A DNA stretch of 64,000 bases, taken from positions 32,001 through 96,000 of the forward strand of contig JBDRPD010000105.1 in assembly GCA_043827405.1 (NCBI GenBank). Direction: 5' to 3'. The DNA comes from Elusimicrobiota bacterium (GTDB lineage: Bacteria > Elusimicrobiota > Elusimicrobia > UBA1565). Positions 4,174-56,566 of this stretch are shown here, one piece after another. The notes beneath the pieces were generated by a model that searched no databases, was not told the origin of the DNA, and saw only the letters and a list, made by a program, of their open reading frames with translations. Numbering within the stretch: the stretch's first letter is position 1; each line of letters begins with the position of its first letter. A program made the translations under genes and the position numbers.

Positions 4174-5334
4174 ATGGGTGTGGGAAGACTTATCGACGCC
4201 GACCTTAGCTTCATCAAGTTCTTAAAACAATCGGGGGGCGAGGACGTAAAGAAGTGCTATCAGTGCGCGACCTGCTCCGCAGTCTGCAGTCTCTCTCCGG
4301 CCGACAAGCCCTTCCCTAGAAAGGAGATGCTCCTGGCGAGCTGGGGCCAGTCCGACAAGCTGGTCAAGGATCCCGACATCTGGCTCTGCTACCAGTGCAA
4401 CGACTGCTCGACTTACTGTCCGCGCGGCGCCAAGCCCGGCAATGTCCTGGCGGCGGTCCGCAACTATGTCTATCAGCATTGCGCATTTCCTTCCTTCATG
4501 GGGAAGGCGCTGGCGAGCCCTAAAGCGCTGCCGCTCTTGATCGCCGCGCCGATGGCGATCATGGCCGCGGTCTTTTTCGCCTCGAAGAAATTTCCCACCA
4601 TCGCGCATGATCCGAGCTTGAACATGCATACGGACCACATCACGAGCAGCACGGTGCTGCTGGACAGCGTATTCTCGATCCACGTGGTCGAGCCGCTGTT
4701 TATCGCCGGCAATATTCTGATCTTCATCTGCGCCTTTATGGGCTTGTGGCGCTTTTGGAATTCCTTGGAATCGCCGGCCGGCAAAGCCGAAGTCGGCTTC
4801 GTGGCCGGGGTGATCCTGACGGTCAAGGATATCCTGACGCATGGCCGCTTTTTCGACTGCGGGCAGAACAAGCCGCGCTCCTGGGGACATATGCTGGTGT
4901 TCTACGGCTTTTTCGGCGCCGCCGCGACCGCGGGCCTCGGCGCCTTGATGCTAAAGATCATGCATGAGCCGCCGCCGATCCCGCTGGGGCATCCGGTGAA
5001 GTGGCTCGGCAACCTGTCGGGCCTGGCGGGCATCGTCGGCTCGGCGGCCCTGCTGTTTCGCCGCTTTACCGACAGCGAGGAGGTCGGAGCCAACGGCTAT
5101 CAGGACTGGCTGTTCCTCATTGTGATATTCCTCTGCTTCGTCACCGGCTTCATGACGCAGTTCACGCGCATGAGCGGCACGTCGCTGGCCTTCGGGGTCT
5201 ATTACATCCACCTTTGCATCGTATTTTTCCTGTTGTGGTACGCCCCCTACTCGAAGTTCGGGCATATGTTCTACCGGGGCCTCGCTCTCGTTCATGCCCG
5301 CTGTACCGGGCGTCTGGACGACGGCGGCAAGTAG
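4174..5334 (+). CDS. qmoC: Quinone-interacting membrane oxidoreductase subunit C
   Basis: CYQCATCSAVC and CYQCNDCSTYCP Fe-S motifs followed by a NarI-like heme-b TM domain (YSKFGHMFY); AGGAGG RBS before ATG 4174. Confidence 0.93.
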   Translation: MGVGRLIDADLSFIKFLKQSGGEDVKKCYQCATCSAVCSLSPADKPFPRKEMLLASWGQSDKLVKDPDIWLCYQCNDCSTYCPRGAKPGNVLAAVRNYVYQHCAFPSFMGKALASPKALPLLIAAPMAIMAAVFFASKKFPTIAHDPSLNMHTDHITSSTVLLDSVFSIHVVEPLFIAGNILIFICAFMGLWRFWNSLESPAGKAEVGFVAGVILTVKDILTHGRFFDCGQNKPRSWGHMLVFYGFFGAAATAGLGALMLKIMHEPPPIPLGHPVKWLGNLSGLAGIVGSAALLFRRFTDSEEVGANGYQDWLFLIVIFLCFVTGFMTQFTRMSGTSLAFGVYYIHLCIVFFLLWYAPYSKFGHMFYRGLALVHARCTGRLDDGGK

Positions 5335-5374
5335 CGGCGCGTCCCTACGATTCGACTAACTTAAGGAGAAGCCA

Positions 5375-6637
5375 ATGGTTGAAGAAAACTCATTAACCGT
5401 CGATACGCTTGTCGTCGGCGGCGGAATCTCGGGCATGACGACGGCCATCGAGACCGCGGAAGCCGGCAAGCGCGCCATTCTCTTGGAGCGCAAGCCCAGT
5501 TTGGGCGGCCGGGTCATGGCGATGAACCAGTATTTCCCCAAGCTGTGCCCGCCGACCTGCGGCATCGAGATCAACCTGAAGCGGATGCGGGGCAACGAGA
5601 ACCTCCAGGTTATGACCCTCGCCGAGGTGGAGAAGATCTCCGGCGGGCCGGGCAAGTACGAGGTCACAGTCAAGCTGCACCCGCGCTTCATCAACGAGAA
5701 GTGCACCGGCTGCGGCGACTGCGAGCGGGCCTGCGAGGTCGAGCGCGACAACGACATGAACTTCGGGCTCGACAAGACCAAGGCGGCCTACCTGCCGCAC
5801 CTCAACGCCTATCCCTTCCGCTACGTTATCGATCCGGCGCAGGTGAAGGATGAGAAGATGAAGAAGTGCGCCGAGGCCTGCAAGTACGGCGCTATTGAGC
5901 TGGACATGCAGCCCAAGACCATCACCATCCGGGCCGGCGCCGTCGTCTGGGCCACCGGCTGGCGGCCTTATGACGCCGCCAAGATGGAGCGGCTCGGCTT
6001 CGGCAAGTACAAGAACGTGGTGACCAATGTCATCATGGAGCGCTTGGCCTCCGAGACCGGACCGACCGGCGGCAAGATCGTCCGTCCTTCGGACCAGAAG
6101 GAGATCGCGAAGATCGGCTTCGTGCAGTGCGCGGGCTCGCGCGACGACAACCACCTGCCGTACTGCTCGTCGGTTTGCTGCCTCGCTTCGATGAAGCAGG
6201 CGACCTATGTCCGCGCGCAGTATCCGGAGGCCGAGATCCATATCTTCTACATCGACGTCCGGACCCCGGGCCGTATGGAGGACTTTTACACCAAGGCGCA
6301 GGAAGACAAGAAGCTGTTCTTCCACCGCGGCAAGGTCGGCACCATCACCGAGATGGACAACGGCAACGTGATCCTCGAAGCCGAAAATACGGTCAGCGGC
6401 CAGCTCACCAAGACCGAGGTCGACATGGCGGTGCTGGCGGTCGGCATGGTGCCCAATACCGCCGATACGCCGCCGCCGTTGGATACGCCGCTTGACGACT
6501 ACGGCTTCATCGCGCCCGACAGCGGCCAGGGCGTTATCGGCGCGGGAACGTCGACGCGCCCGCTGGACGTCTCGATGTCCGTGCAGGACGCTACCGGCGC
6601 GGCCATGAAAGCCTTGATTACCGCGGCGGGGAGGTAG
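5375..6637 (+). CDS. qmoA: QmoA (HdrA-like flavoprotein)
   Basis: GGGISG FAD site, YFPKLCPPTCG, QCAGSRD, YCSSVCC. Confidence 0.92.
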   Translation: MVEENSLTVDTLVVGGGISGMTTAIETAEAGKRAILLERKPSLGGRVMAMNQYFPKLCPPTCGIEINLKRMRGNENLQVMTLAEVEKISGGPGKYEVTVKLHPRFINEKCTGCGDCERACEVERDNDMNFGLDKTKAAYLPHLNAYPFRYVIDPAQVKDEKMKKCAEACKYGAIELDMQPKTITIRAGAVVWATGWRPYDAAKMERLGFGKYKNVVTNVIMERLASETGPTGGKIVRPSDQKEIAKIGFVQCAGSRDDNHLPYCSSVCCLASMKQATYVRAQYPEAEIHIFYIDVRTPGRMEDFYTKAQEDKKLFFHRGKVGTITEMDNGNVILEAENTVSGQLTKTEVDMAVLAVGMVPNTADTPPPLDTPLDDYGFIAPDSGQGVIGAGTSTRPLDVSMSVQDATGAAMKALITAAGR

Positions 6638-6640
6638 GCC

Positions 6641-8866
6641 ATGGAAACCAAGCTCGGAACTTATATCTGCAAAGGCTGCGACATCGGCAGCTCCCTGGAT
6701 ATTGAAAAGCTCACCGGCGTCGCCACCGGCGAGGCCAAGGCCGCGGTGTGCAAGACGCACGACGCCTTCTGCAGCGACGAGGGCGTCGGCCTGATCAAGG
6801 CCGACGTGGAAAAGGAGGGCCTCAACCGGGTCTCGGTCATGGCTTGCTCGCAGCGGGTTTTCCCCGGTCTCTTTGATTTCGGCAAGGAGGTGCTCGTCGA
6901 CCGCGGCAACCTGCGCGAGCAGGTGGCCTGGGTGATGAAGCCCAACGACGAGGACACCCAGATGCTGGCCGCGGACTATGTGCGTATGAGCGCGGTCCGG
7001 CTGCAGAACACCGAGCCGCCGGAGCCGCTCATCGAGGAGACCAGCAAGGAGATTCTGGTCGTCGGCGGCGGCATGACGGGGCTGACCGCGGCCAAGTCGG
7101 CGGCCGATGCCGGCTACAAGGTCGTCCTGGTTGAGAAGGAGGCGAAGCTCGGCGGCTGGGCGACGAAATTCAAGAAGGTCTTCCCCAAGCGCCCCCCTTA
7201 TCGCGACCTGGAAGATACCGGGGCGGCGAAGCTCATAAAGGAAGTCGAAGGGAACTCCAACATCACGGTGCACTTGTCGACCGAGGTGGCCAAGACGGTC
7301 GGCCAGCCCGGCAAGTTCGCGGTGCTGCTCAAGAGCGGCGGCAAGGAGACCGAGCTGACGGTCGGCTCCGTCATCCTGGCGGCCGGCTGGAAGCCCTACG
7401 ATGCCGGCAAGCTGGGGCATCTCGGCTACGGCAAGTCGCCCGACATCATCACCAATGTCGAGATGGAGGAGATGGTCGCCCGGGGCGAGATCAAGCGTCC
7501 CTCCGACGGCAAGCCCGTCGAGAGCGTCGTCTTCATCCAGTGCGCGGGTTCGCGCGATAAGGATCACCTGTCCTACTGCTCCGCCGTCTGCTGCCGCGTC
7601 AGCCTCAAGCAGGCGCTCTATGTGCGCGAGCAGAACCCGGAAGCCAAGGTCTACATTATCTACAAGGATGTTCGTTCGCCCGCGCAGTATGAGCGGTTCT
7701 ATGCCCGCGTTCAGGAGGACGAGGGCGTATTCCTGACCAAGGGCGAGATCGCCGCGGTGGAAAAAGACGGCGATAAAATCTCGGTCGGGGTCGAGCAGAC
7801 CATCCTCGGCGAGGACCTCACCCTGAAGGCCGATCTCGTAGTGCTGGCCGCGGGCATGGTGCCGTCGACCCAGGTCGACGCGCCGGCGCCCAAGGAAGAA
7901 GAGAAGAAGGCCGAAGGCGAGGCGCCCAAGGAAGAGAAGAAGGCGGAGCCTGTTCAGCCGGGATCCAGTATGCTCAACCTGGCCTACCGTCAGGGACCCG
8001 ATCTTCCGACCTTGAAGTACGGCTTCCCGGATTCGCACTTCATCTGCTTCCCGTACGAGACCCAGCGCACGGCGGTCTTCGCCGCCGGCGGGGTGCGGGC
8101 GCCGATGGACTTCGCCACCGGGGCCAGCGACGCGCGCGGCGCGGCGCTCAAGGCGGTACAGGCGGTGGAGGCGATCAGCAAGGGCCGGGCGCTGCATCCG
8201 CGCGCCGGCGACCTGAGCTATCCGGATTTCTTCTTCCAGCGCTGTACCCAGTGCAAGCGCTGCACCGAGGAATGTCCCTTCGGCGCTCTTGATGAGGACG
8301 TGAAGGGCACGCCCAAGCCCAATCCGCTGCGCTGCCGGCGCTGCGGCGTCTGCATGGGCGCCTGCCCGGAGCGCATCGTCTCCTTCAAGAACTACAGCGT
8401 CAATATGATCTCGCAGATGATCAAGGCGATCGAGGTCCCGGACGAGTTCGAAGAGAAGCCGCGGATGCTCGCTTTCGTCTGCGAGAACGACGCGCTGCCC
8501 TCGCTCGACATGGCCGGGATCCTGCGCAAGAAATATAATGACCGGATCCGCATCATCCCGCTGCGCTGTCTCGGCTCGATGAACGCGGTATGGGTAAGCG
8601 ATGCCTTGGCGCGCGGCTTCGACGGCGTAATGCTTATCGGCTGCCGCAAGGGCGACGACTACCAGTGCCACTTCGTCCGCGGCAGCGAGCTGGCCAGCTA
8701 CCGCATGGGCAACGTCAAGGAGAAGCTCAAGCAGCTGTCGCTTGAAGAACAGCGCGTTGAGTTTCACGAGCTGGCGATCACGGACTACAATAAGATTCCG
8801 GGCATATTCGACAAGTTCCTGGAAGCGATCGAAGCCATGGGGCCCAACCCATACAAGGGGATGTAA
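6641..8866 (+). CDS. qmoB: QmoB (HdrA-like with C-terminal MvhD domain)
   Basis: GGGMTG, QCAGSRD, CTQCKRCTEECP, CRRCGVCMGACP, C-terminal RCLGS...GCRKGDDYQCHF. Confidence 0.95.
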   Translation: METKLGTYICKGCDIGSSLDIEKLTGVATGEAKAAVCKTHDAFCSDEGVGLIKADVEKEGLNRVSVMACSQRVFPGLFDFGKEVLVDRGNLREQVAWVMKPNDEDTQMLAADYVRMSAVRLQNTEPPEPLIEETSKEILVVGGGMTGLTAAKSAADAGYKVVLVEKEAKLGGWATKFKKVFPKRPPYRDLEDTGAAKLIKEVEGNSNITVHLSTEVAKTVGQPGKFAVLLKSGGKETELTVGSVILAAGWKPYDAGKLGHLGYGKSPDIITNVEMEEMVARGEIKRPSDGKPVESVVFIQCAGSRDKDHLSYCSAVCCRVSLKQALYVREQNPEAKVYIIYKDVRSPAQYERFYARVQEDEGVFLTKGEIAAVEKDGDKISVGVEQTILGEDLTLKADLVVLAAGMVPSTQVDAPAPKEEEKKAEGEAPKEEKKAEPVQPGSSMLNLAYRQGPDLPTLKYGFPDSHFICFPYETQRTAVFAAGGVRAPMDFATGASDARGAALKAVQAVEAISKGRALHPRAGDLSYPDFFFQRCTQCKRCTEECPFGALDEDVKGTPKPNPLRCRRCGVCMGACPERIVSFKNYSVNMISQMIKAIEVPDEFEEKPRMLAFVCENDALPSLDMAGILRKKYNDRIRIIPLRCLGSMNAVWVSDALARGFDGVMLIGCRKGDDYQCHFVRGSELASYRMGNVKEKLKQLSLEEQRVEFHELAITDYNKIPGIFDKFLEAIEAMGPNPYKGM

Positions 8867-9011: not shown

Positions 9012-10223
9012 ATGTCTGATAAATCCATAGAAACTCCCTTGTTGGACGAGCTGGAGAAAGGCAAATGGCCCAGCTTCGTCAAAGAGATCAAGGATGCGGC
9101 GAAGAAGAGCCCGATGGCGAAGGACCTTCTCGGCCAGCTGGAAAAGTCCTACCGGGAGAAAGTCGGCTACTGGAAGCATGGCGGCATCGTCGGAGTCATG
9201 GGCTACGGCGGCGGCGTTATCGGCCGGTACTCGGCGCTTCCTGAAGAATTCCCTGGCGTCTCGCACTTCCACACGGTCCGCGTCAATCAGCCTGCCGGCT
9301 GGTTCTACAACAGCGAGGCCCTGCGCAAGGTCTGCGATATCTGGGAGAAGCGCGGATCGGGCCTGACCAATATGCACGGCTCAACCGGCGATATGGTGCT
9401 GCTCGGCACCAAGACCGATCAGCTTGAGCCGATCTTCGACGAACTGCAGAAGATCGACTTCGACCTCGGCGGGTCCGGCTCCGACGTTCGCACGCCCAGC
9501 TGCTGCAACGGCATGGCGCGCTGCGAATGGGCCTGCTACGACACCATGAAGGCGTGCAACGACCTGACCCAGGCGTACCAGGACGAGCTGCATCGCCCGG
9601 CCTTCCCGTACAAGTTCAAGTTCAAGTTCTCCGGATGCCCGAACGACTGCGTCGCGTCGATCGCGCGCGCCGACCTGTCCATTATCGGGACCTGGCGCGA
9701 CGACATCCAGCTGGACAAGGACGCCGTCAAGGAGTACGCCGACAAGGGCATGGATATCCAGTCCGACGTCGTCTCCAACTGCCCCGCCAAGTGCATGAAA
9801 TACGACGCCGCGGCCAAGGAGCTTAAGATCGACAACAGCTACTGCCGCCGCTGCATGCACTGCATCAACGCCATGCCCAAGGCCCTGCGCCCGGGCAAGG
9901 ATCGCGGTGCGACCATCCTGATCGGATCCAAGGCTCCGATCATGGAAGGCGCCCTGCTGTCGTCGGTGCTCATTCCGTTCATCAAGATGGAAGCGCCCTA
10001 CCAGGAAATCCAGGACCTTCTCGAGAAGATCTGGGACGTCTGGTGTGAAGAGGGTAAGAACCGCGAGCGCGTCGGTGAATTCATCCAGCGCGTCGGTCTC
10101 GGTAACTTCCTCGAGGCGATCGAAGTCGAGCCGGTGCCGGAGATGGTGGCTCATCCTCGTGAGAATCCGTATGTCTTCTACGAAGAGTACTTCGAAGAAG
10201 GCGACGGGTCTGAGGAAAAGTAA
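9012..10223 (+). CDS. dsrA: Dissimilatory sulfite reductase alpha subunit
   Basis: [48 protein letters not shown] siroheme/Fe-S motif; GGAGG RBS before ATG 9012. Confidence 0.98.
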
Positions 10224-10250: not shown

Positions 10251-11336
10251 ATGACAACTACTCAAGCTCCTGAAAGGCGTACCGACTTCGGTCCTCCGCA
10301 TTACGAGCAGTTTTTGCCGCCGATCATCAAGAAGAACTACGGCAAGTGGAAGTACCATGAGGTCTTGAAGCCCGGCGTGATGGTCCACGTGGGTGAGTCC
10401 GGCGATAAGCTCTTCACCGTGCGGGCGGCCTCCGGCCGGCTGATCAGTGTCGGCAAAATCCGGGCCTACTGCGACCTGGCCGACAAGTACTGCGACGGCT
10501 ACCTCCGGTTCACCAGCCGGCACAATGTCGAGTTCCTGACCGACAAGAAGGAGAACATCGATCCCTTGATCGCTGATCTCAAGAAGCTCGGCCATCCGGT
10601 GGGCGGCATCGGCAACTCCATCTCCAGCATCGTGCACACGCAGGGATGGGTCCACTGCCACTCGGCGGCGACCGACGCCTCGGGCATCGTCAAGGCCGTG
10701 ATGGACGACCTGATCGAGCACTTCGAAGAGCAGAAGATCCCCGGGAAGCTGCGCATCGCCCTGGCCTGCTGCTTGAATATGTGCGGCGCCGTGCACTGCT
10801 CGGATATCTCGATTCTCGGCATCCACCGCCGTCCGCCGAAGGTCGACCATGATATGGTGAAGAAGATGTGCGAGATTCCGAACGTCAGCGCCTCCTGCCC
10901 GACCGCGGCCATCCGGCCGGCGACGGTCAACGGCAAGGAGTCCGTCGAGGTGCTTGAGGACCGCTGCATGTTCTGCGCGAACTGCTACACGGTCTGCCCG
11001 TCCATGCCGCTGAACAACCCGCTCAACGACGGCGTGTCGATCTGGGTCGGCGGCAAGGTGAGCAATGCCCGGACCGAGCCGGCGTTCTCCAAGCTGGCGA
11101 TTCCGTTCATCCCGAACAACCCGCCGCGCTGGCCCGAAGTGACCACGGCGGTGCGCAAGCTCGTGGAGGTCTGGGCCGCCAACGCCAACAAGTATGAGCG
11201 GATGGGCGAGTGGATCAATCGTATCGGCTGGCCGAAGTTCTTCAAGCTGACCGGCCTTCCGTTCGAGAAGGTCCATATCGATGACTTCAAGCACGCCGGG
11301 CTGACGTACAAGCGCTCGACGCATCTGACGTTCTGA
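10251..11336 (+). CDS. dsrB: Dissimilatory sulfite reductase beta subunit
   Basis: [51 protein letters not shown]. Confidence 0.98.
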
Positions 11337-11351: not shown

Positions 11352-11600
11352 GTGGCGAAAACAGTTGAAGAAGTGGCGGATGCCATGTTCGACATGGTCA
11401 AGGACGCCATGGGTAAAAAGAAGCTGAAGCCGATGGACCTTATCAAAGCCACGATCGCGGCGTTCGGCGAGGATCAGGTCGACAAGAAGCTCGGCAAGGA
11501 GGCGATCAAGATATTGGTCAACTCCGGCCGGTGCGTCTACACCTACTTCGGCGGAAGCTTCATCGAGATCCCTCACCGAGAGGCCGCCGCGAACGACTAG
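11352..11600 (+). CDS. dsrD: DsrD, allosteric activator of DsrAB
   Basis: 82 aa directly after dsrB; AIKILVNSGRCVYTYFGGSFIE winged-helix signature. Confidence 0.88.
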   Translation: MAKTVEEVADAMFDMVKDAMGKKKLKPMDLIKATIAAFGEDQVDKKLGKEAIKILVNSGRCVYTYFGGSFIEIPHREAAAND

Positions 11601-11722: not shown

Positions 11723-13141
11723 ATGAATACCGAATTACCGCGGCTTATTATCGCCGGACTGTCCGGAGACTCAGGCAAGACTATCGTCAGCCTGAGCCTT
11801 CTCGCGGCTCTGCGCCGCAATGGATTGTCCGCCATCGCCTTCAAGAAGGGCCCCGACTATATCGATGCGGCGTGGCTCGGACGGCTGGCCGGTGCGCCCT
11901 GCCGCAATCTTGACACCTATATGGTCGCTCCGGAGATCGTGCGCGAGCGGTTTATGCGCCATGGCGCGGGGGCGGATATCGCGCTCATCGAAGGCAACCG
12001 CGGGCTGTTCGACGGCCGGGACGCCGCGGGGACGCACAGCACCGCGGAGCTCGCTAAGCTGCTGCAGGCTCCGGTTCTGCTGGTCGTTAATGCGGCAAAG
12101 ACCACGCGGACGGTGGCCGCTCTTATCAAAGGCTGCCAAGCATTCGCGCCGGATATCGTTTTCGCCGGCGTCGTTCTTAACCGGACGGCCGGCAAGCGGC
12201 ACACCCAAGTGATTACCGAGGCGGTGGAGCGGTACTGCGGCCTCCCGGTGCTCGGCGTGCTGCCCAAGCTGAGCGGAAATCCGGGACTTATTCCGAGCCG
12301 CCATCTTGGTCTGGTGACGCCGGCGGAATCCGGCAAGGACGCGGAGATGGAGGATCGGCTGGCGGATATCGGCGCCGAGCATCTCGATATTGAGCGCATT
12401 CTCGCGGCGGCGAGAAAGACCGCAGCGCTTCCCGCGGCGGCGGATCTCCCGGCGCCGCGCCAGCTGAGAGCGCGGATCGGATACTTCAGCGACCCGGTTT
12501 TTACGTTCTATTATCCGGAGAACCTGGAAGCGCTGGCGGCGCAGGGAGCGGAGCTCGTTCCCATTTCCTCCATCGTCGACGGCAATCTGCCCGATATCGA
12601 CGGCCTCTATATCGGCGGCGGCTTTCCGGAAACACATGCCCAGCGCTTGGCCGACAATACGGCGATGATGGCGTCGGTGCGTTCGGCGGCCAAGGCGGGC
12701 CTGCCGATCTATGCCGAGTGCGGCGGTCTGATATATCTCGCGAAGTCGATCACCTGGAAAGGCCATCGCTATCCCATGTGCGGTTTATTTCCGCTCGATC
12801 TGCGGATGCAGTCCAAGCCCGCGGGACATGGCTATACCTTGCTCAAAGTGGACCGCCCAAATCCTTTTTTCGCTCAGGACGTCGAGATCAAGGGGCATGA
12901 GTTCCACTATTCCGCGCTGAAAGAGGAGCCGGAGATCGAGGCCACCTGTATGCGGGTCGAGATCGGTGCCGGACTTGGAGGGCGGCGCGAAGGTCTGGTC
13001 AAAAACAACGTTTTAGCGTGCTACACGCATATTCACTCCGACGCGGTGAGCAGCTGGGCTCCGGGTTTCCTGGCACGAGCTGATGAGTACCGTTTGCGGT
13101 TGGCGAAACCGTTGCTTAAACTAGCAGGTAGACAGCCATAA
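11723..13141 (+). CDS. dsrN: Siroheme amidase (cobyrinate a,c-diamide synthase-like)
   Basis: GDSGKT P-loop, FKKGPDYID, EGNRGLFDG, YAECGG, GHEFHYS; dsr context. Confidence 0.9.
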   Translation: MNTELPRLIIAGLSGDSGKTIVSLSLLAALRRNGLSAIAFKKGPDYIDAAWLGRLAGAPCRNLDTYMVAPEIVRERFMRHGAGADIALIEGNRGLFDGRDAAGTHSTAELAKLLQAPVLLVVNAAKTTRTVAALIKGCQAFAPDIVFAGVVLNRTAGKRHTQVITEAVERYCGLPVLGVLPKLSGNPGLIPSRHLGLVTPAESGKDAEMEDRLADIGAEHLDIERILAAARKTAALPAAADLPAPRQLRARIGYFSDPVFTFYYPENLEALAAQGAELVPISSIVDGNLPDIDGLYIGGGFPETHAQRLADNTAMMASVRSAAKAGLPIYAECGGLIYLAKSITWKGHRYPMCGLFPLDLRMQSKPAGHGYTLLKVDRPNPFFAQDVEIKGHEFHYSALKEEPEIEATCMRVEIGAGLGGRREGLVKNNVLACYTHIHSDAVSSWAPGFLARADEYRLRLAKPLLKLAGRQP

Positions 13142-13157
13142 ATAGCGAGCAAATATA

Positions 13158-46408: not shown

Positions 46409-46418
46409 GCGCACCTCT

Positions 46419-48020: not shown

Positions 48021-48900
48021 TCTTCGTCTCCTCCTTCTTCGGCATGTCCGACGTCGCGATGTCGACCCAGTTCTTCTTGCCGTCGGCGCCCAGATGCGGC
48101 GCCGACCAGGTCACGGTCTGTCCCAGCAGCTGCTTGACCTCTTCCTCCATCGCCGGATTCATGGGCTCGTCGTTCCAGCGAATCTCATGGTAGAAGAAGT
48201 ATTTGGCCAGGAAGTGCATCATGTAGGAAAACGGCAGGTAGAGCAGGAAGAACATCCCCGCCGCGATATGCGCCGCGATCGCGCCGCTGACCGCCATCCC
48301 GGTGTTCCCGGAGAAGAAGGCCTTGATAAATCCCGTCATCTCGGCGGTGAAGCTGGTCGTAAAAACGGCGTAAGCTCCGGAAACGAATACCGCCGCCAGC
48401 ACCAGCAGGTTGAAAAAAGACGCCGGCGTGGCGAAAGGCTTAAGCTTGGGGTCGAGCAGGCGTTTCAGGAAGAGCCCCACGGTTCCGATCGCGCCCAGGA
48501 TATAGCCCGCCGTTCCCAGCAGCAGCGCCAGGCGTTCGGCCGGCGGGAAGGCAAAAGCCGCGAGAAGCAGTGCGCCGGTCATGGCGGTCAGCAGGTAGAG
48601 CCCGAAATGGAACGGGAAGGAGAATATCCACAGCGGGCGGTTATGCTCCCAGACGCCTTTCAGGAAAACGATTTCCTTGAACATGTAGAGGCCTTCGCTG
48701 AGCAGCGATTTTTCGCGCGGCTTGGTCCACCACTCAAACTCCTCCAGGTAGGATCCGCCGTAATGGGCCTTGCCGGCCTCATGCGGTACCGGAGCGAGCT
48801 CCCAGCGCAGGTGCATCGGCATCATCTTGATGCTTAGACCGCGATATACGAAACCGATCGCGAAGACGGCTGTTGCGATGTAGCAGAATATAAGCAGCAT
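48013..48900 (-). CDS. DsrM/NarI-like membrane cytochrome b
   Basis: PMHLRWELAPVPHE, FPFHFGLY, LPFSYMMHF. Confidence 0.8.
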   Translation of the reverse strand: MLLIFCYIATAVFAIGFVYRGLSIKMMPMHLRWELAPVPHEAGKAHYGGSYLEEFEWWTKPREKSLLSEGLYMFKEIVFLKGVWEHNRPLWIFSFPFHFGLYLLTAMTGALLLAAFAFPPAERLALLLGTAGYILGAIGTVGLFLKRLLDPKLKPFATPASFFNLLVLAAVFVSGAYAVFTTSFTAEMTGFIKAFFSGNTGMAVSGAIAAHIAAGMFFLLYLPFSYMMHFLAKYFFYHEIRWNDEPMNPAMEEEVKQLLGQTVTWSAPHLGADGKKNWVDIATSDMPKKEETKNA

Positions 48901-49416
48901 CTACCCTTCCTCCTCTTTCTTGCTGTCTAGTTTGTCCAGGAACGCCCGTACTTCCTTGCTTATGTCGTCGAGGCCTGAGCGGCCGTAAACGATGCCCTTG
49001 ATGTCCTCGGTGCACTGTGAGCCGAAACGATAGACGACGCAGCTGCGGCATTCATTGCCCTTGGGGCTGCAGTTTCCGCCCTTAATCATCCAGCAAGGCT
49101 TCGAGCTGCCCTTATAGGCCGCACACGCCCCACGTCTCTTCTTGCTGCATTCGGCGACTTCCCAGCAAGGCAGGAGAGCCTGCAGCCGACGAATGCCCTC
49201 CATGTTCAGCCCCAGTTCCTGAATCATGTGGCGGATGATTTTGATGCGGTCCATGTCCTCATGCGAGAACAGGCGGTTTCCGGTGGGCGTGCGATAGGGG
49301 ATGAGTAGTCCTTCGGCCTCGTATTTGCGGATGGCGGAGACCGATAGGCCGGTTTTCGCGGCCAGCGTTCCTATGGATATAACCGGATCGGTGAGTGTAT
49401 TGCGCGGCTTTCCCAT
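48901..49416 (-). CDS. MerR-family regulator with Cys-rich two-CW-like domain (paralog of 42929-43459)
   Basis: SIGTLAAKTGLSVSAIRKYEAEGLL; LLPCWEVAEC...PCWMIKGGNCSPKGNECRSCVVY. Confidence 0.85.
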   Translation of the reverse strand: MGKPRNTLTDPVISIGTLAAKTGLSVSAIRKYEAEGLLIPYRTPTGNRLFSHEDMDRIKIIRHMIQELGLNMEGIRRLQALLPCWEVAECSKKRRGACAAYKGSSKPCWMIKGGNCSPKGNECRSCVVYRFGSQCTEDIKGIVYGRSGLDDISKEVRAFLDKLDSKKEEEG

Positions 49417-49431
49417 CCCGCCCTCGGTACC

Positions 49432-49471
49432 CTATACTAAATAGTATAGATAATCTGCACTATGAAATCAA
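49432..49471 (-). promoter_or_regulatory. Putative promoter of the merR paralog with a palindrome over the -10
   Basis: Minus strand TTGATT-17-TATACT; CTATACTA-aa-TAGTATAG at 49432-49449. Confidence 0.5.
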
Positions 49472-49491
49472 TAATGCGATCTCGGTGAGAG

Positions 49492-50349
49492 CTAGTTTTT
49501 GGAGGGAGGAAGCTTCTTTTTCTTCAGCGCTTCGTTCTTCTTGTCGAGCTCTTCTTTTTTCTTTTCCATGACCTCGCCTTTGACCGAGAGAGTCTTCTCT
49601 CCGAATAGGGCGAAGCGCAGCCAGCGGTAGCCGAGGCGCAGGAGCGCCATGTCGTCGGTCCGCACCTTTTCCTGGGTTTCGACATCGATCTCGAACTTGT
49701 CGAGAAAGCTGCTATTGAAGACGAACTCGCGGAACTTGTCGAGGTGATAGCAGGCCATAAAGAACATCTCAACCTTGCGGGGATCGAGGTTCTGGCCTTC
49801 CAGGAAAAACTTGTGGAGGGTGAGATCTTTGAATTCCTCCCCCATGTCGTTGTATTCGCGGATGCCTTGGTCTTCGACCCAGCTGCCGACGGTCTGCTCT
49901 TTCTTTTCGCAGTGTCCTTTGCAGACCCCTTCGTTTAAGAGGAAATAGAACTCATCGTCGAGCTCCTTATTCCCTTCTTTAGGGGAGGCGAGGCCCAGCG
50001 GATACATCCGGCATGCCCACGGCCGGTCTTGGTAGATGCCGCAGCCCTGCTCGCCGACAAAGTGGCAGGATTTCTTCTCGTTGTCCTGCATCTGGAGTTG
50101 GACGATGGGGTACTTGATCTTCTCGTCGAACGGCATAATGGTGTACTTCTTGAGGAACTCGCCCGACGTCATCTTGAGCGCCTGCTTCATGCGCAGGATG
50201 TCGTAAGGAGTGAGAAAAATGTTGACGTCGGCGCAGCAGGCGTTGAAGCAGGAGACGCCGGGGTGGCAGGAGAAGGTGAACTTGCTGTCCTTGTCGAGCC
50301 GGGGATACTCTTTGAGTATCTCTTCCTTTAGTTTGCGGATAGCTTCCAT
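49492..50349 (-). CDS. YkgJ-family cysteine-cluster protein
   Basis: FSCHPGVSCFNACCAD, CHF...GCGIYQDRPWACRMYP. Confidence 0.85.
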   Translation of the reverse strand: MEAIRKLKEEILKEYPRLDKDSKFTFSCHPGVSCFNACCADVNIFLTPYDILRMKQALKMTSGEFLKKYTIMPFDEKIKYPIVQLQMQDNEKKSCHFVGEQGCGIYQDRPWACRMYPLGLASPKEGNKELDDEFYFLLNEGVCKGHCEKKEQTVGSWVEDQGIREYNDMGEEFKDLTLHKFFLEGQNLDPRKVEMFFMACYHLDKFREFVFNSSFLDKFEIDVETQEKVRTDDMALLRLGYRWLRFALFGEKTLSVKGEVMEKKKEELDKKNEALKKKKLPPSKN

Positions 50350-50361
50350 GCCTTTCCCCCC

Positions 50362-50643
50362 TTAGTCCTGCTTTACAATGCCGTCCTTGAGCGCGGCGGC
50401 AGACCATACCGGCAGCGGACCTTGTTCGCCGGTTTCGGGGTCATGCCGGTGGCGGTACGATACTTTATGCCGGAACTTCTCCCACATCCATTTCCAGCCC
50501 CCCACAAAGTAGGGGCATGCATCGTTAAAGCAGACGTATTGGTACTCCCCCCAGGATACGCCGTCGGGAGACGCCCATTTGTCCAGCTGCTTGTCGCAGT
50601 GCGGACACTGCGGGATCGTTTCTGCCATATTGTCCTTTGACAA
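50362..50643 (-). CDS. Small zinc-ribbon-like protein
   Basis: CPHC...VCFNDACPYF; start at TTG 50643 or ATG 50628. Confidence 0.7.
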   Translation of the reverse strand: MSKDNMAETIPQCPHCDKQLDKWASPDGVSWGEYQYVCFNDACPYFVGGWKWMWEKFRHKVSYRHRHDPETGEQGPLPVWSAAALKDGIVKQD

Positions 50644-50707: not shown

Positions 50708-52576
50708 TCAGACGATCGAATGGATCGGACGCTTGTCCATCTTCCACTCATTCTTCGCGGGCTCATAGGTGCAGTTCGCGAACACCTTCCAGTCCTCCTT
50801 CATCTCCGGAAGGTCGGAGCGGAAGTAGTAGCCCGGCCACCGTGTCTCCTCGCGGAACAGGATGGTCCGCATATGGGACTCAGCCTGCCAGCTGCGATGG
50901 ATGTTCTCCCACGCCCGCATCAGCTCATGCAGGTTCTCGGCGGCGAGATTATCAGAATCCTCGTGGAGGACCTTGAGAAGCTCGAGCCCCTTGGTGAGGA
51001 GCTTTTCGCTGGTGGTGAAGTTCGTGGAGACGCCTCCGGCGTACTCGTCCATCAGCTTCTGCAGCCGGAACAAGTACTGCTTCGGGCGGATGTAGCTCGG
51101 GTTGACGTCCGGGTCGGTGGTGTCGTTCTTATGCTTCTCCATGATGTCGAGGGGCCTCAGGATGCGCTCCCTAAGCTTCTCGATCACGGCCGCGTCGACC
51201 TCGATCAGGTCGGGATTCTCCTTCGCGTACTTGACCATCGCCTTGCCGGCGATGCGGCCCTCGGTGAAAGAGCCGGAGGAGAACTTGTGGCTGGATGCGC
51301 CGGAAGCGTCGCCGGCGGCGAACAAGCCCTTTACGGTCGTCATGTTGGTGTAGCCCCAGAAGTAGTCCTTGTGCGCGAGGTCTTCCGGACCGCTGACCCA
51401 GGCGCCGGATGCGCCGGAATGCGAGCCGATGAAGTAGGGCTCGCACGCCGCGATCTCGGACGGGGTCGTTTCCGGCATGGTGTCCGTGGCCGCCCACAGG
51501 ATGGCCTGTGAGATGGTCATGTCGAGGAAGTCTTCCCACGCCTCGGACTCGAGCTCCTTGAGCTTCTTCTTCTGCTCCTTGGGGTCAGGGATGGCCTTGT
51601 AGATGTTCTGGATGGCCTCTTCGGTCCGCATGTAGATCGGACCCTTGCCGTCCATGACGTCGAGCATCATGAGCCAGTTGCGCAGGTTCGCCGGGACCGG
51701 CTTGACCTTGCCGTAGGGCTGCCACTTGTCGAGCTCGGCGGCGTTGGTCTGCATGTAGTTCTCGCCGGCGGCATTTGTTGCTCTTGCCTTGAACAGCAGG
51801 AACCAGGCGCCGACCGGGCCGTACGCGTCCTTGAAGCGGACCGGGATAAACCGCACTTCCTGGCAGGTCATCTCAGCGCCGGCCTTCAGGGTGAAGTAGG
51901 TGCTGGCGCCGGAGTTGAACGGCGGGTACCAGGAGCGTCCCAGACCCTCGCCGCCGGAGCGCGGCTTGAACACGTGCACTGCGCCGCCCATGTTGCAGAG
52001 AACCGCCTTCGCCTTGAAGACGTAGAACTTGTTCTCGCGGGTGCTGAAGCCGACCGCGCCCACGCAGCGGCCGTCCTTGATCAGGGGCTCGACGGTGAAC
52101 ACGCGCTCGTAGATGTTCTCGGTACCGAGCGCGTTCTTCGCGACCTCGGCGACGATGACCTTGTAGGACTCGCCGTTGATCATCAGCTGCCACCGGCCTT
52201 CGTGAACGTAGCCGCCCTTGTCATCCTTCCAGATGGGGAGGCCCCATTTCTCGAACAGGTGAACCGAGGAGTCAACGTGGCGGGCGATGCTCGCCACCAG
52301 GTCTTCGCGGGTCACGCCCATAAGGTCGTTGCGCACGTACTCGATGTAGTCCTTAAGGGTGTTCTTTCCGTCTTTGACGCCTACGTATTGGTTGATGGCT
52401 GAGAGGCCCATGGCCACGGCGCCGGAACGATCCATCGCCGCTTTGTCGACCAGGACGACTTTCAGCCCGTGCTTCTTGGCCCAGTAAGCGGTTTCCACGG
52501 CCGCGCCGCAGCCCGCCATACCACCGCCAAGAATCAGGATGTCACTTTTTACTTCGACTGTTTCAAAGTTCGCCAT
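50708..52576 (-). CDS. aprA: Adenylylsulfate reductase alpha subunit
   Basis: RSGAVAMGLSAINQY, WQLMINGESYK, PVRFKDAYGPVGAWF, HKFSSGS. Confidence 0.98.
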   Translation of the reverse strand: MANFETVEVKSDILILGGGMAGCGAAVETAYWAKKHGLKVVLVDKAAMDRSGAVAMGLSAINQYVGVKDGKNTLKDYIEYVRNDLMGVTREDLVASIARHVDSSVHLFEKWGLPIWKDDKGGYVHEGRWQLMINGESYKVIVAEVAKNALGTENIYERVFTVEPLIKDGRCVGAVGFSTRENKFYVFKAKAVLCNMGGAVHVFKPRSGGEGLGRSWYPPFNSGASTYFTLKAGAEMTCQEVRFIPVRFKDAYGPVGAWFLLFKARATNAAGENYMQTNAAELDKWQPYGKVKPVPANLRNWLMMLDVMDGKGPIYMRTEEAIQNIYKAIPDPKEQKKKLKELESEAWEDFLDMTISQAILWAATDTMPETTPSEIAACEPYFIGSHSGASGAWVSGPEDLAHKDYFWGYTNMTTVKGLFAAGDASGASSHKFSSGSFTEGRIAGKAMVKYAKENPDLIEVDAAVIEKLRERILRPLDIMEKHKNDTTDPDVNPSYIRPKQYLFRLQKLMDEYAGGVSTNFTTSEKLLTKGLELLKVLHEDSDNLAAENLHELMRAWENIHRSWQAESHMRTILFREETRWPGYYFRSDLPEMKEDWKVFANCTYEPAKNEWKMDKRPIHSIV

Positions 52577-52616: not shown

Positions 52617-53069
52617 TCAAGCAGCCACGCCCGCTTCGACTTCGGGCAGCTTGTCCATGCCGCAAGACTCCGGCTCGGTGAACAGCAGCTGGCTGTTGAG
52701 GTCGTCGGTCGACTTGAAGCCGCCGTCCGGTACTGCGGACCCCTCAGGGGTGGTCCGGATCGGGAACTTGAAGCGCTTGATCGTGCCGCCGCGGAATTTG
52801 ACCGTCCACATGATCGCGTCCGAGCTGCGCATCGGCGTTACGCTGCCGCCCATCGGGACGAAGTCCTGGTAGCCGCGGACTTCGATCGCCTGAACCGGGC
52901 AGATCTTGACGCAGCACATGCACTCCCAGCACATCTGGGGATCCTGGTTGTAAGCCTTGCTGATTTCCTTATTAAGGACCATTAAGTCGTTAGGGCAGAT
53001 ATGCTGGCAGGCGGTCTTGTCCAGCGCCTTGCACCCGTCGCACTTGTCCTTGATTACATAACTCGGCAT
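52617..53069 (-). CDS. aprB: Adenylylsulfate reductase beta subunit
   Basis: CDGCKALDKTACQHICP, CWECMCCVKICP, RFKFPIRTT. Confidence 0.98.
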   Translation of the reverse strand: MPSYVIKDKCDGCKALDKTACQHICPNDLMVLNKEISKAYNQDPQMCWECMCCVKICPVQAIEVRGYQDFVPMGGSVTPMRSSDAIMWTVKFRGGTIKRFKFPIRTTPEGSAVPDGGFKSTDDLNSQLLFTEPESCGMDKLPEVEAGVAA

Positions 53070-53369: not shown

Positions 53370-55616
53370 ATGCCCGGTAAACCTGCAAACGGCCGTTGGA
53401 GGAAAACCTCGCTTTTCCTCCATCTTACCCCGCTCGGCGGCAGCGTCAGGCGGGTTTTCCCCTTCCTCGGCTGGTTTCGCGGCTATTCTTTGTCCAAGCT
53501 GCGGTCCGACTTTTTCTCCGGCATTACGGTGGCGCTGGTTCTGATTCCCCAGTCCATGGCCTATGCCCAGCTGGCCGGACTGCCTCCTCATTACGGGCTC
53601 TTCGCCGCCTTCCTGCCGCCAATGGTCGCTTCGCTGTTCGGCTCCAGCCGGCAGCTGGCCACCGGACCGGTCGCGGTGGTCTCGCTGATGACCGCGACCG
53701 CTCTCGAGCCTTTCGCCACCGCCGGCAGCGAATCCTTCATCGCCTACGCGATGCTCCTCGCGCTGCTGGTCGGGGCGTTCCAGTTCTCTCTCGGCGTTCT
53801 GCGTCTGGGCCTGGTGGTTAACTTCCTGTCGCATCCGGTGGTCAACGGCTTTACCAACGCCGCCGCCTTGATCATCGCCTCTTCTCAGCTCTCGAAGCTG
53901 TTCGGCGTCTACGTCGACAAGGCGGACCACCATTACGAGACCATCATCAATGTCTTCCGGGCGGCGCTGGAATATACCCACTGGCCGACCCTCGCTCTTG
54001 CGGTGCTCGCCTTCATGATCCTGTGGGGCCTCAAGCGGCTGAATCCCAAAATTCCCAATGTGCTGGTCTGCGTCGTCGTCACTACCGTCATCGCGAAGGT
54101 CATCGGCTTTGAGCAGAACCATACGGCGCCGCTTGACGCGATCAGAGTGCCGGAAGTCCGGCAGCGGGTCAGGAAGTTTAACCAGGCCTTGGCCGACTTC
54201 GAGCGGCTCAGCGCCGAACGGATCGAGCTTGTCGCGAAAAGCAAGGAGCAGGAGAAGAAGCATGCGCTGGGCCATGCGGATGTTTTGACGCTCCAGCATG
54301 AGATCAGTCTCCACCATCTGGCGATCAAGGAGCTGAAGGATGAGATATTTTTCGATCGCGCCTATCTCCGTTCTGTCCATTTAGCGGCGGTCGGAGATGG
54401 CGACGACGGCCGAAGATTCTATTTTGTGGGACGGCTTTCCCCCAAGCCGCGTGACGAGATTCGGCACTGGCGCATCAAGGTCGGGAACGAGCCGATAGAC
54501 GAGAAAATGGTCAAATTTACCGGCGGCGGCGCGGTGGTCGGAGTCATCCCGCGGGGACTGCCCCGGTTCAAGACGCCGAAGATCGATCTGGCGATGATCT
54601 TCAGCCTCCTGCCTATGGCCGTCATCATTTCTTTGCTCGGCTTCATGGAGGCGATCTCCATCGCCAAGGCGATGGCCGCCAAGAGCGGTCAGCGTCTGGA
54701 CCCCAACCAGGAGCTGATCGGCCAGGGTTTGGCCAATATCGCCGGCTCGTTCGGCCAAAGCTATCCGGTGAGCGGTTCTTTTTCCCGTTCCGCGGTCAAC
54801 TTTCAGGCCGGCGCGGTCAGCGGGCTCTCCAACGTGTTCAGCGCCGGTCTGGTGGTAGTTACGCTGCTGTTTTTTACCCCGCTGCTCTATCATCTGCCGC
54901 AAGCCGTTCTGGCGGCCATCATTATGATGGCGGTGATCGGCCTTATTAATATCCGCGGCTTCATTCATGCTTGGCAGGCGCAGAAGCATGACGGGATCGT
55001 CGTGCTGATTACCTTCATCGCGACTTTGGCTTTCGCGCCGCATTTGGACCGCGGCATCTTTATCGGGGTGGCCTTGTCGGTTGCCTTCTATCTTTATCGG
55101 ACCATGAAGCCCGATATCGCGATCCTGTCCAAGTACTCGGATGGCGCCTATCGCGCATCAAGCCGTTTTAATTTGGAGCGCTGCAAGTATATCGCCGTGA
55201 TTCGCTGCAACAGTTCTCTGTTTTTCGCCAACGTAAACTATCTCGAGGAGGAGATCCTTGACCGGGTCGCGAGCATGCCCCGGCTTAAGCATGTGCACAT
55301 CGTGGGCAACGGCATCAATGAGCTCGACGCCTCGGGCGAGGGCCTCCTGTCGATGATAGTCGACCGCATGCGCGAGGCCGGTTTCGGCCTATCCCTCTCC
55401 GGGCTCAACGACGGGGTGCTTGACGTCATGCGGCGCACCGGGCTGTATGAGAAGATCGGGGAGGAGAACCTTTATCGCAGCGTCACCTTCACCCTGGAAA
55501 ACATTTATCGGAGATGCCATGACGGTTCCGACGAAGAGTCATGTCCGCTGGTGAATGTGGTATTCAAGGGTCTGCCGGTCTCGAGCGGGAAGAAGAAATC
55601 CAAGCGTGAGGATTAG
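53370..55616 (+). CDS. sulP: SulP-family sulfate permease with STAS domain
   Basis: IPQSMAYAQLAGLP, GSSRQLATGP, SGSFSRSAVN, C-terminal LFFANV...LDASG. Confidence 0.92.
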   Translation: MPGKPANGRWRKTSLFLHLTPLGGSVRRVFPFLGWFRGYSLSKLRSDFFSGITVALVLIPQSMAYAQLAGLPPHYGLFAAFLPPMVASLFGSSRQLATGPVAVVSLMTATALEPFATAGSESFIAYAMLLALLVGAFQFSLGVLRLGLVVNFLSHPVVNGFTNAAALIIASSQLSKLFGVYVDKADHHYETIINVFRAALEYTHWPTLALAVLAFMILWGLKRLNPKIPNVLVCVVVTTVIAKVIGFEQNHTAPLDAIRVPEVRQRVRKFNQALADFERLSAERIELVAKSKEQEKKHALGHADVLTLQHEISLHHLAIKELKDEIFFDRAYLRSVHLAAVGDGDDGRRFYFVGRLSPKPRDEIRHWRIKVGNEPIDEKMVKFTGGGAVVGVIPRGLPRFKTPKIDLAMIFSLLPMAVIISLLGFMEAISIAKAMAAKSGQRLDPNQELIGQGLANIAGSFGQSYPVSGSFSRSAVNFQAGAVSGLSNVFSAGLVVVTLLFFTPLLYHLPQAVLAAIIMMAVIGLINIRGFIHAWQAQKHDGIVVLITFIATLAFAPHLDRGIFIGVALSVAFYLYRTMKPDIAILSKYSDGAYRASSRFNLERCKYIAVIRCNSSLFFANVNYLEEEILDRVASMPRLKHVHIVGNGINELDASGEGLLSMIVDRMREAGFGLSLSGLNDGVLDVMRRTGLYEKIGEENLYRSVTFTLENIYRRCHDGSDEESCPLVNVVFKGLPVSSGKKKSKRED

Positions 55617-55619
55617 GTT

Positions 55620-56015
55620 ATGGATCTAATGGAGATCAAACAGACAGAAGAGAAGACGTTCAGCATCGAGATCAGAGGCCATAAGGTCATCACCGACATG
55701 CACAAGGAGGACGGCGGCGGCGATATCGGCATGAACCCGCTTGAGCTGATGGTCGGTTCTTTGGGCGGCTGCATCGGCTTGAAACTGCAGCAATACTGCC
55801 GGGCGCATGATCTGCCGTCCGAAGGGATCGTGGTCAATGCGGTGACGACTCTGGCGTCCAAGCCGGTGCGCATCGCCAATATCGCGATCGATATCACTTT
55901 GCCCGAAGGATTCCCCAAGGAGAAGCGTGATGCGGCGCTGCGGGTCGCGCATACCTGTCCCATCCACGCGACGCTGAAAAATCCCCCGGAGCTGGATATC
56001 GAGATCGTCTCTTAG
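55620..56015 (+). CDS. OsmC-family protein
   Basis: GMNPLELMVGSLGGC...TCPIHATL. Confidence 0.85.
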   Translation: MDLMEIKQTEEKTFSIEIRGHKVITDMHKEDGGGDIGMNPLELMVGSLGGCIGLKLQQYCRAHDLPSEGIVVNAVTTLASKPVRIANIAIDITLPEGFPKEKRDAALRVAHTCPIHATLKNPPELDIEIVS

Positions 56016-56566
56016 GCGGGAGGGTTCTTCGCGACCTTCTCGATATTGCAGACTTTGTACAGCTCGTGGAGCATCTCCACGGTGCGCGCCACGCCCACGA
56101 CTTTCCCGTTCTTCATCACGGGGAGGAAGCTGGAGTCCGAGTCCACGATCTTATTCATCATCTTGACGATGTCGTCCTCGTAGTCTACGGTGTCCGTGAT
56201 GGGGCGCATGACATCGGTTACCGAGCGCTTGAAGTTGCCCAGTACCTTGTCGATGATAATGTCCAGCTGGGGTTCATCGTCGCCGCTTAGATAGCCGGGC
56301 AGCATGAGATTGGCGAGGCCTTCCGGGTCCAACCCTCTCAGGATGTCGCGGCGCCGTACCTTGCCCATCAGCTCGTGCTTCTCGTTAAAGACAAGGATCA
56401 CGCGCGGCAGTGATTTTTTACCGTCGATTTCCAGCTGGAATTTCTCCATTTCCGTCAGCGCCTGACAGAGGCTGTAGGTATGCGGGATATGGGGATACTC
56501 GTCCAACGGAATCATCAAATCTTTTGCTTTTTCCAGCTCCATTTCTTTTACCTCTTGTCCGGTCAT
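56012..56566 (-). CDS. CBS-domain protein
   Basis: AKDLMIPLDEYP, VTDVMRP, LPVMKNGKVVG. Confidence 0.8.
   Translation of the reverse strand: MTGQEVKEMELEKAKDLMIPLDEYPHIPHTYSLCQALTEMEKFQLEIDGKKSLPRVILVFNEKHELMGKVRRRDILRGLDPEGLANLMLPGYLSGDDEPQLDIIIDKVLGNFKRSVTDVMRPITDTVDYEDDIVKMMNKIVDSDSSFLPVMKNGKVVGVARTVEMLHELYKVCNIEKVAKNPPA

Follow-up and report, generated by a model that had tools for sequence, protein, structure and literature searches.

A probably long-established dissimilatory sulfate-reduction cluster in a chromosome of the class Elusimicrobia

Does a member of the Elusimicrobiota carry a complete gene set for sulfate respiration, and how could such genes have reached it? The question is raised by a stretch of 64,000 nucleotides (the window in this text), which covers positions 32001-96000 of contig C105 in the genome of an uncultured groundwater member of the Elusimicrobia, G000. 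The genome assembly has 4.33 Mb, with a completeness of 98% and a contamination of 0.48%. A sulfur cluster of 52.4 kb lies at window positions 4174-56566, and is composed of qmoCAB, dsrABDNLCT-MKJOP, siroheme genes, tmcDCB-hmcBCDA, aprBA and sulP. An original prediction from the letters alone had described sulfate-respiration genes packed into about 55 kb of an Elusimicrobiota-like host, and had proposed their lateral acquisition en bloc. The packing was confirmed by the family scan and by open reading frames. The locus is probably a genuine, long-resident dissimilatory sulfate-reduction cluster in an Elusimicrobia chromosome, which would have entered the class once, been passed on within it, and serve a facultative anaerobe.

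Identification of the core genes and published relatives

Families were called by an NCBIfam scan of 60 window open reading frames (ORFs) against the curated cut-offs, and the frames of all named cluster genes were found open. The complete gene set for dissimilatory sulfate reduction is present in the genome; DsrA, DsrB, DsrC, DsrMKJOP, AprBA and QmoABC are encoded in the window, and Sat on contig C81. The dissimilatory sulfite reductase genes dsrA (9012-10223) and dsrB (10251-11336), both on the plus strand, gave 592 and 508 bits (cut-offs 393 and 342). DsrA contains the siroheme-[4Fe-4S] cysteines (CX5C at residues 165-171, and CX3C in GCPNDC), and its best matches in the PDB are 3mm5 and 2v4j. 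It also has an acidic tail at its end (10190-10223). The adenosine 5'-phosphosulfate (APS) reductase genes aprB (52617-53069) and aprA (50708-52576) are on the minus strand, with 197 bits (cut-off 136) and 908 bits (cut-off 642).

The genes qmoC, qmoA and qmoB (4174-8866, plus strand), for electron transfer from quinone to APS reductase, stand ahead of dsrAB. QmoC (4174-5334) scored 402 bits (cut-off 300); QmoA and QmoB have no model of their own in the scan, and were named from their position beside qmoC, with HdrA-family matches below cut-off. Further plus-strand genes are dsrN, dsrL (13158-14831), dsrC (14877-15194) and dsrT (together 11723-15828), followed by the dsrMKJOP membrane complex (15825-20762), all five members of which are above cut-off. 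DsrJ contains three CxxCH motifs. DsrC (116 bits, cut-off 54), present as a single gene in G000, ends in a C-X10-C tail with two C-terminal cysteines. The names DsrN and DsrL come from broader families above cut-off (CobB, 428 bits against 254; PRK12771, 583 against 516) together with position, and DsrT was named by position and a match to RsbRD_N. DsrL has a YRR motif at residue 297, which stands for NADP(H) specificity (PMC7596348; this and the other cited papers were accessible in part, and statements on them refer to those parts). An S-x-x-R pattern was seen ahead of its first cysteines without alignment to a reference DsrL, and a lysine run is found at its start (13158-13200).

The dsrD gene (11352-11600, plus strand) is of a divergent type; it begins with GTG at 11352 directly behind dsrB, and encodes 82 residues. 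No match was found in Pfam (searched with a 71-residue form), in NCBIfam, or with a 24-sequence profile against the PDB. In the ESM Atlas the protein fell among clusters named DsrD (0.98), with a template-modelling (TM) score of 0.84 to a PF08679 cluster, and its fold model is a winged helix with a predicted local distance difference test (pLDDT) value of 89.6. Structure searches with Foldseek and VIA-align gave generic winged helices; the solved DsrD was not among the matches listed.

In Desulfovibrio the genes for sulfate respiration are scattered, and the original prediction held such tight clustering to be unusual. This part did not stand. The layout is published for SbA2 and Candidatus Thermonerobacter. 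It is also common in the best 80 of 588 loci from a DsrA scan of named genomes (75-86% identity to the window DsrA), many of which show the order qmoAB-dsrABDNLC(T)MKJO. The clustering is ordinary and the cluster type published; the novelty lies in the host phylum and in a flat spread that reaches two orders. The peatland Acidobacteriota SbA1-7 (PMC6018796), of which SbA2 has all genes on one scaffold, and Zixibacteria, Armatimonadota, UBA9089, OLB16 and AABM5-125-24 (PMC10591310) likewise have a full Dsr set, in which dsrD is paired with dsrN and dsrL with dsrC, together with a second dsrMK, aprBA, qmoABC and sulP/DASS, in hosts with terminal oxidases. The dsrL of Zixibacteria and others is of type 2 (PMC10591310). 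The G000 cluster differs from these in its host phylum, the added tmcDCB-hmcBCDA operon, several two-component modules, a host block behind dsrP, and a sat that lies outside and belongs to another lineage. Candidatus Thermonerobacter thiotrophicus has the order sat-aprBA-hyp-hyp-qmoC-dsrAB-dsrD-dsrN-hyp-dsrL-dsrC-dsrM2K2 (PMC6338057), and shares its modules with G000, the two conserved hypotheticals behind aprA among them; in G000, however, which is of another phylum, qmoCAB is ahead of dsrAB and dsrTMKJOP directly behind dsrC. As in Desulfovibrio and Archaeoglobus (DsrAB structures 2v4j and 3mm5; Hmc, Tmc), the core enzymes and most Hmc/Tmc subunits are above cut-off; however, G000 has DsrL, typically absent from canonical reducers (PMC10591310), and its DsrD is divergent.

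No report of complete sulfate reduction in Elusimicrobiota was found in the literature searched, mostly at abstract level and with subscription journals missing. The phylum is unmentioned in the main text and one supplement each of PMC10591310 and PMC11406059, and no dsr-bearing Elusimicrobia are named in the accessible parts of PMC11484514, PMC12740246, PMC8357290 and PMC10811913. The words sulfate, sulfite and dsr do not occur in the main text, which was covered without the supplements, of a groundwater Elusimicrobia preprint (10.1101/765248). The only DsrAB-bearing Elusimicrobia genome found in print is Elusimicrobia bacterium UBA10166 (PMC10504309), with a basal DsrAB, the order dsrN-E-F-H-A-B-C-TM-J-O-P and no DsrK; the visible part of its table entry has no DsrD, DsrL, Apr or Sat. 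The G000 cluster, probably of the bacterial reductive type and with DsrD, DsrL and DsrK but no DsrE, is another system. The original statement that the phylum is not regarded as sulfate-reducing therefore agrees with the silence of two surveys of 2023-24, and needs qualification for the one genome with a different, basal DsrAB in the third.

Host chromosome and continuity of the contig

The host was recognized correctly. The right flank (56808-64000, both strands) contains hypotheticals, an M42-like peptidase, tRNA-Leu(GAG) at 60346-60431, secG, pgk and gap. Among the best 120 Pgk matches listed, all 25 with an organism name were Elusimicrobia or Elusimicrobiota. The pilin inside the cluster (23525-24019) carries the motif quoted in the original prediction, and its top three ESM Atlas clusters are commonest in Elusimicrobiota, as had been claimed; more than 10 paralogues, up to 86% identical, are present in G000. 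Of the host genes proposed for comparison with Dsr, Pgk and the pilin were of Elusimicrobiota type by their best matches; DsrAB was nested among Zixibacteria and Ignavibacteria labels.

Such a mixture could also be produced by assembly or binning, if a contig of a Zixibacteria-like sulfate reducer had been fused to Elusimicrobia DNA. The genome is metagenome-derived, and none of the contigs listed spans the whole compared stretch, which leaves out the 20-27 kb junctions. Two groundwater metagenome runs from two studies (X1 and X2) bear on this. In X1, one contig of 8245 bases with a depth of 16.8 spans 54699-62943; it begins in sulP, covers secG and pgk and ends in gap. A depth of 16.6 was recorded for the contig that covers dsrK2-aprA. 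The 56-59 kb junction, for which a check of coverage and continuity had been proposed, is thus bridged at cluster depth, although X1 may be the source sample. Of the words sampled from 17.5-27.4 kb, a fraction of 0.99 is present in X1, which means presence, not continuity. X2 contains a slightly different strain over 29 of the 30 bins, cluster and flank alike. Moreover, host genes lie inside the cluster, contamination is low, and the same Dsr clade is found in four more genomes next to host genes (ATP synthase subunits, mreB). In addition, one Elusimicrobiota-titled record with DsrA is named as a single-cell genome. Since sulP and pgk/gap are linked on a contig of cluster-like depth, and five genomes of the class carry dsrB, the contig is unlikely to be chimeric, and an artefactual fusion is very improbable as the explanation of the locus.

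The block that interrupts the cluster (20812-27726, strands mixed) encodes LysR, two small ORFs (presumably TerB-like), a GreA-like protein, a peptidoglycan-binding protein, the pilin, a CPA2 antiporter, a thioesterase and a hypothetical protein. These about 7 kb, from lysR to the hypothetical at 27726, are absent between dsrP and the cysG N-terminal domain gene (cysG-N) in three related genomes (G344, G435 and G535), in all of which the junction is assembled; this points to a later rearrangement. The CPA2 antiporter has orthologues (53-76% identity) in five genomes of the family, of which four lack dsr. By its gene content the block is host DNA, which would have entered the cluster later and not as part of the incoming unit. 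The argument that a host gene inside the cluster speaks against mis-assembly is therefore kept as support for chromosomal residence, but not for the composition of the incoming block. The guanine-plus-cytosine content at third codon positions (GC3) is low (0.55-0.70) from lysR to pilin (20812-24019), though the pilin is host-type; the front half of the block may come from a lower-GC relative.

The core genes of the cluster have a GC3 of mostly 0.80-0.89, compared with 0.83-0.86 for pgk and gap. The region is slightly atypical in overall GC (57-61%, against 63.3% for the host) and in 5-kb tetranucleotide percentiles (39-95), which counts somewhat against long residence. Integration at the tRNA-Leu was ruled out, as no match of at least 13 nt to this gene, and hence no attachment-site (att) duplicate, was found elsewhere on C105. 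The 20 largest families in a repeat search were paralogous coding stretches or short matches, with no telling flanking repeats, and a 21-base joint (58057-60350) proved to be no repeat when both places were inspected.

Distribution, divergence and history of the cluster

The cluster is rare in the phylum. DsrA was above cut-off in 2 of the 401 genomes sampled across the phylum, and DsrB in 3 of the 101 genomes of the order, 5 of 393 in the class and none of 122 in a second class. The five carriers (G000, G344, G435, G533 and G535) represent five genera, three families and two orders, and each also has aprA, qmoB and sat; in genus g19, three of the four genomes are without the cluster. G344, G435 and G535 have one cluster each, in which these modules recur in a different arrangement and cysG-N and cobA stand immediately behind dsrP; in G533 the cluster genes are on five short contigs. 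The neighbours differ in each genome, and include peptide ABC transporter genes, ATP synthase and mreB (labelled by inspection of the sequences). Beside the cluster, additional DsrC-like ORFs (33-38% to DsrC), helix-turn-helix (HTH) paralogues and a further dsrMK-like pair were seen in G344 (L024, C222:29774-35000) and G435 (L131, C19:229-5004).

Four of the best 80 named DsrA loci are titled Elusimicrobiota; most others are labelled Zixibacteria, Ignavibacteria, Bacteroidetes or Kryptoniota. One Elusimicrobiota-titled locus (L028) belongs to a record titled single amplified genome, which also has aprA. Because the named loci and the coded genomes were drawn from a single collection, they were not summed, and the carrier count is five. 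AprA was above cut-off in three dsr-negative Elusimicrobia, G339 (L242), G297 (L243) and G440. The first two loci, one beside a qmoA-like gene and one beside sat, were considered as decayed clusters and ruled out, since their AprA is only about 50% identical to that of the window. A basal-type DsrAB like that of UBA10166 was not found in the 393 and 122 genomes; the smaller classes were only sampled.

A DsrAB tree was reconstructed from 76 rows, the window and 75 of the 80 nearest loci, five loci without a full DsrB being excluded. The window and four Elusimicrobiota-titled rows formed a clade (SH-aLRT, the Shimodaira-Hasegawa-like approximate likelihood ratio test, 99) within a 48-row group mostly labelled Zixibacteria or Ignavibacteria, and none of the 71 other rows fell inside it. 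With nine concatenated Dsr proteins the five coded genomes were also one clade (100 in a quick 31-row tree, 100/99 in a careful 12-row tree), and joining G000 with L035 or L029 was rejected by the approximately unbiased (AU) test (p-AU 0.0002 and 0.003). Near this clade, nearly identical DsrAB were seen in records titled Spirochaetales and delta proteobacterium (L029 and L031); their likeness would be explained by a mislabel or a recent transfer.

The divergence within the clade is flat. Mean identity over 16 cluster proteins is 70.0-75.4% in all ten genome pairs, compared with 61.1-81.9% for RpoBC, and the Dsr/RpoBC path ratio falls from 1.21 within a family over 0.70-0.89 at middle depth to 0.41-0.49 between orders. 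DsrA and DsrB are 79-88% identical where RpoBC is 61%. On an RpoBC tree of 29 genomes, from which G314 was excluded as lacking rpoBC, the dsr trait requires five changes. Because the cluster identity is so even against that of RpoBC, an old lateral entry with spread within the class fits better, on these sequence comparisons, than a recent acquisition by G000. The original claim of lateral acquisition en bloc is upheld in part, in that Dsr is foreign to the phylum (5/393, 0/122) and nested among Zixibacteria and Ignavibacteria labels. The recent receipt of a single block by G000 is not, in view of the near-host composition, the missing att duplicate, the four other Elusimicrobia of the same clade at other neighbourhoods, and a Sat of another lineage.

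Vertical descent would place the cluster in the ancestor of the class, followed by loss nearly everywhere, with strong purifying selection or saturation behind the flat divergence. The Dsr tree is compatible with the family pairs and does not reject the order clade, the carrier contigs (47-65% GC) speak for long residence, and there is no trace of a mobile element. However, loss would be required in 388 of the 393 genomes, including three of the four in genus g19, and the further aprA carriers, two of which were compared, are not remnants. SulP and DASS are 75-79% identical between orders, against 61% for RpoBC and a median best-match identity to G000 of 48% for 37 flanking genes in G535 (65% for 19 in G344). 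We therefore regard vertical descent as unlikely, though it is the strongest of the alternatives. The cluster might also have been acquired several times independently from a single unsampled donor lineage, in G000 possibly recently and en bloc, which would come closest to the original prediction. The Dsr clade is star-like with short inner branches, the chromosomal neighbours differ, and GC is slightly low; but no other DsrAB row falls inside the clade, the core genes are host-like in GC3, and it is unparsimonious to assume that one donor gave the cluster five times, always to the same class. This explanation has very little probability.

The preferred history, single entry with passage inside the class, could run as follows. 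The cluster would have entered the class once, after the split of the orders, from a pool shared by genomes labelled Zixibacteria and Ignavibacteria, and then passed between Elusimicrobia lineages. Afterwards, in G000, modules would have been shuffled, the 7-kb host block gained behind dsrP, and the cluster sat replaced by an unrelated one. In G000 the only sat is above cut-off at the end of a contig (C81:47455-48651), three genes from a host-type pilin; it lies beside aprB in the four relatives and is missing upstream of aprB in G000. The cluster-type Sat of G344 is 83-87% identical to those of the other three relatives; the identity of this type to two non-Elusimicrobia loci is 77-79%. The G000 Sat, which fell outside the identity table with its 45% filter, is only 43-44% identical to this type, and its named close relatives have Omnitrophota, Myxococcota, Deltaproteobacteria and Ignavibacteriaceae labels. 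These suggest that G000 lost the cluster gene, for which one of another lineage stands in; no remnant was detected by tblastn.

Several observations weigh against the preferred history. The 12-row tree recovers both family pairs (72/99 and 82/98), and a clade of the three genomes from the order is not rejected (p-AU 0.113), though the quick 31-row tree paired G344 with G435 instead. Since this topology is compatible with the species tree, within-class transfer would rest on branch lengths, without external rate control. Cluster and RpoBC identity are weakly correlated (rho 0.60, p 0.066), in a comparison whose pairs are not independent. The trees do not pin down the donor, because they comprise the 80 nearest DsrA loci, with neither oxidative or basal references nor a true outgroup; the submitter labels are also unreliable.

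Direction of the pathway, wider metabolism and meaning

G000 has the reductive markers DsrD and a YRR-type DsrL. Above cut-off, neither DsrE/TusD (TIGR03012) nor SoxX was found in any of the five carriers; DsrF and DsrH models were not part of the search. The marker set points to reduction, as such sets have been read elsewhere (PMC10591310, PMC11406059).

The wider metabolism was surveyed with 46 selected G000 proteins. Subunit I of an A-type oxidase scored 663 bits (cut-off 671) and subunit II was above cut-off, beside genes like those of Qrc or alternative complex III. A bd oxidase, NapA, Rnf, a sulfhydrogenase-like NiFe hydrogenase, a decahaem cytochrome and a transhydrogenase subunit are also present. 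The pathway might therefore run mainly in reverse or as disproportionation, with sulfide oxidation through a reductive-type DsrAB coupled to oxygen or nitrate, an option raised for similar clusters (PMC6018796). The oxidases and NapA would allow this direction, as would the Sat. Its closest solved structures are 1jhd and 4dnx, which we take to be enzymes of sulfur oxidisers. However, the A-type oxidase is found in only one of the five carriers (G000), the named Sat relatives are not typical oxidisers, and the markers argue for reduction; a mainly reverse mode is improbable. With its oxygen and nitrate reductases, G000 is likely a facultative anaerobe, for which reductive sulfate respiration is probably one option. 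An archaeal-type model of acetyl-CoA synthase (TIGR00316) gave no match in the five carriers, and a motif scan was also negative, which is weak evidence against a Wood-Ljungdahl pathway. None of the RNA runs listed contains the stretch; two of the same study gave only short pieces of low likeness, which are evidence neither way on expression.

With the chemistry taken from characterised homologues, SulP and DASS would import sulfate, and Sat would make APS. AprBA would reduce APS to sulfite, drawing its electrons from quinones by way of QmoABC. DsrAB, with DsrD as activator and NADPH electrons via DsrL-2, would convert sulfite and DsrC to DsrC-trisulfide, which DsrMKJOP would reduce, releasing sulfide and conserving energy. 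Hmc/Tmc and DsrM2K2 would be further membrane electron routes, and CysG, CobA and DsrN would make siroheme(amide). The NADPH for DsrL-2 could possibly come from a transhydrogenase; pnt genes and a nap operon (L216, C105:11737-17750) lie 14-20 kb left of the window.

The accessory modules are partly shared. The siroheme genes (27767-29942, plus strand) are the cysG N-terminal domain and a cobA-hemD fusion, with CysG-N and CobA above cut-off. A plus-strand module (30081-35721), conserved in G344, G435 and G533, encodes an HTH protein, a macro-domain protein, an HmcE/TmcC-like membrane subunit, an HmcF/TmcB-like Fe-S protein with a C-terminal receiver (32145-33887; about 80% conserved, partial in G533), a histidine kinase and a response regulator. 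The receiver fusion, in one operon with the macro-domain and HTH genes, is possibly a phosphorylation-controlled redox module. The hybrid operon tmcD-tmcC-tmcB-hmcB-hmcC-hmcD-hmcA (35727-42925, minus strand) has the identical order in G535; the contigs that carry the cluster in G344 and G435 lack it. HmcA (537 bits, cut-off 400) is a 16-haem cytochrome with 16 CxxCH motifs; HmcB, HmcC, TmcC and TmcD are above cut-off, TmcB (723 bits) slightly below it (735), and hmcD was named by position only. Next on the minus strand (42929-50643) are two MerR-type regulators, three receivers, a histidine kinase, dsrM2-dsrK2 (46419-48900, by homology and position), and two conserved hypotheticals after aprA. 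At the right end (53370-56566) are sulP (plus strand; sulfate permease, 455 bits, cut-off 380), an OsmC-like gene (plus) and a CBS protein gene (minus). The cluster extends to the left (1-4030, minus strand) with a histidine kinase gene cut at the window start, a DASS-family anion transporter (1253-3058) and a response regulator (3167-4030), the last two 80% and 63% identical to cluster genes of G535. Transporter and two-component genes common to the relatives' clusters reach beyond the window start by about 10 kb, as far as C105:21890.

Just left of this extended cluster, about 12-14 kb from the window (C105:17811-20544; L216, L227), lies hgcA (411 bits, cut-off 275), with an ArsR-like gene before it and an hgcB-like ferredoxin gene after it, both labelled by eye. 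It was found in two of the five carriers (G000 and G435), which links them to mercury methylation; hgcA has already been reported in Elusimicrobia (PMC7438021). On another contig (C12:572-8837, L222), a decahaem DmsE-family cytochrome and further multihaem ORFs suggest a capacity for extracellular electron transfer.

Much of the carbon turnover in anoxic settings runs through sulfate reduction, as one of its main routes, and reference trees are used to assign hosts to dsrAB amplicons. The surprise is limited, in that since 2018 many uncultured phyla have been added with the same cluster type. A 2005 paper reportedly dealt with the joint transfer of clustered sulfate-respiration genes; with five genomes of known relationships and nearly equal Dsr distances, this idea becomes testable inside one class. 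The fullest reading is that the Elusimicrobiota are an unrecognised sulfate-reducing phylum, in which a set of 50-70 kb entered once and moved between orders as a class-confined pool, with G000 a facultative oxygen-, nitrate- and sulfate-respiring mercury methylator with a swapped Sat; the chances of its being right or wrong appear evenly balanced. With a fixed Elusimicrobia DsrAB clade, the list of sulfate-reducing phyla would grow by one, and dsrAB sequences from groundwater could be assigned to a host. If true, a class-confined pool would have turned scattered Elusimicrobia lineages into sulfate reducers.

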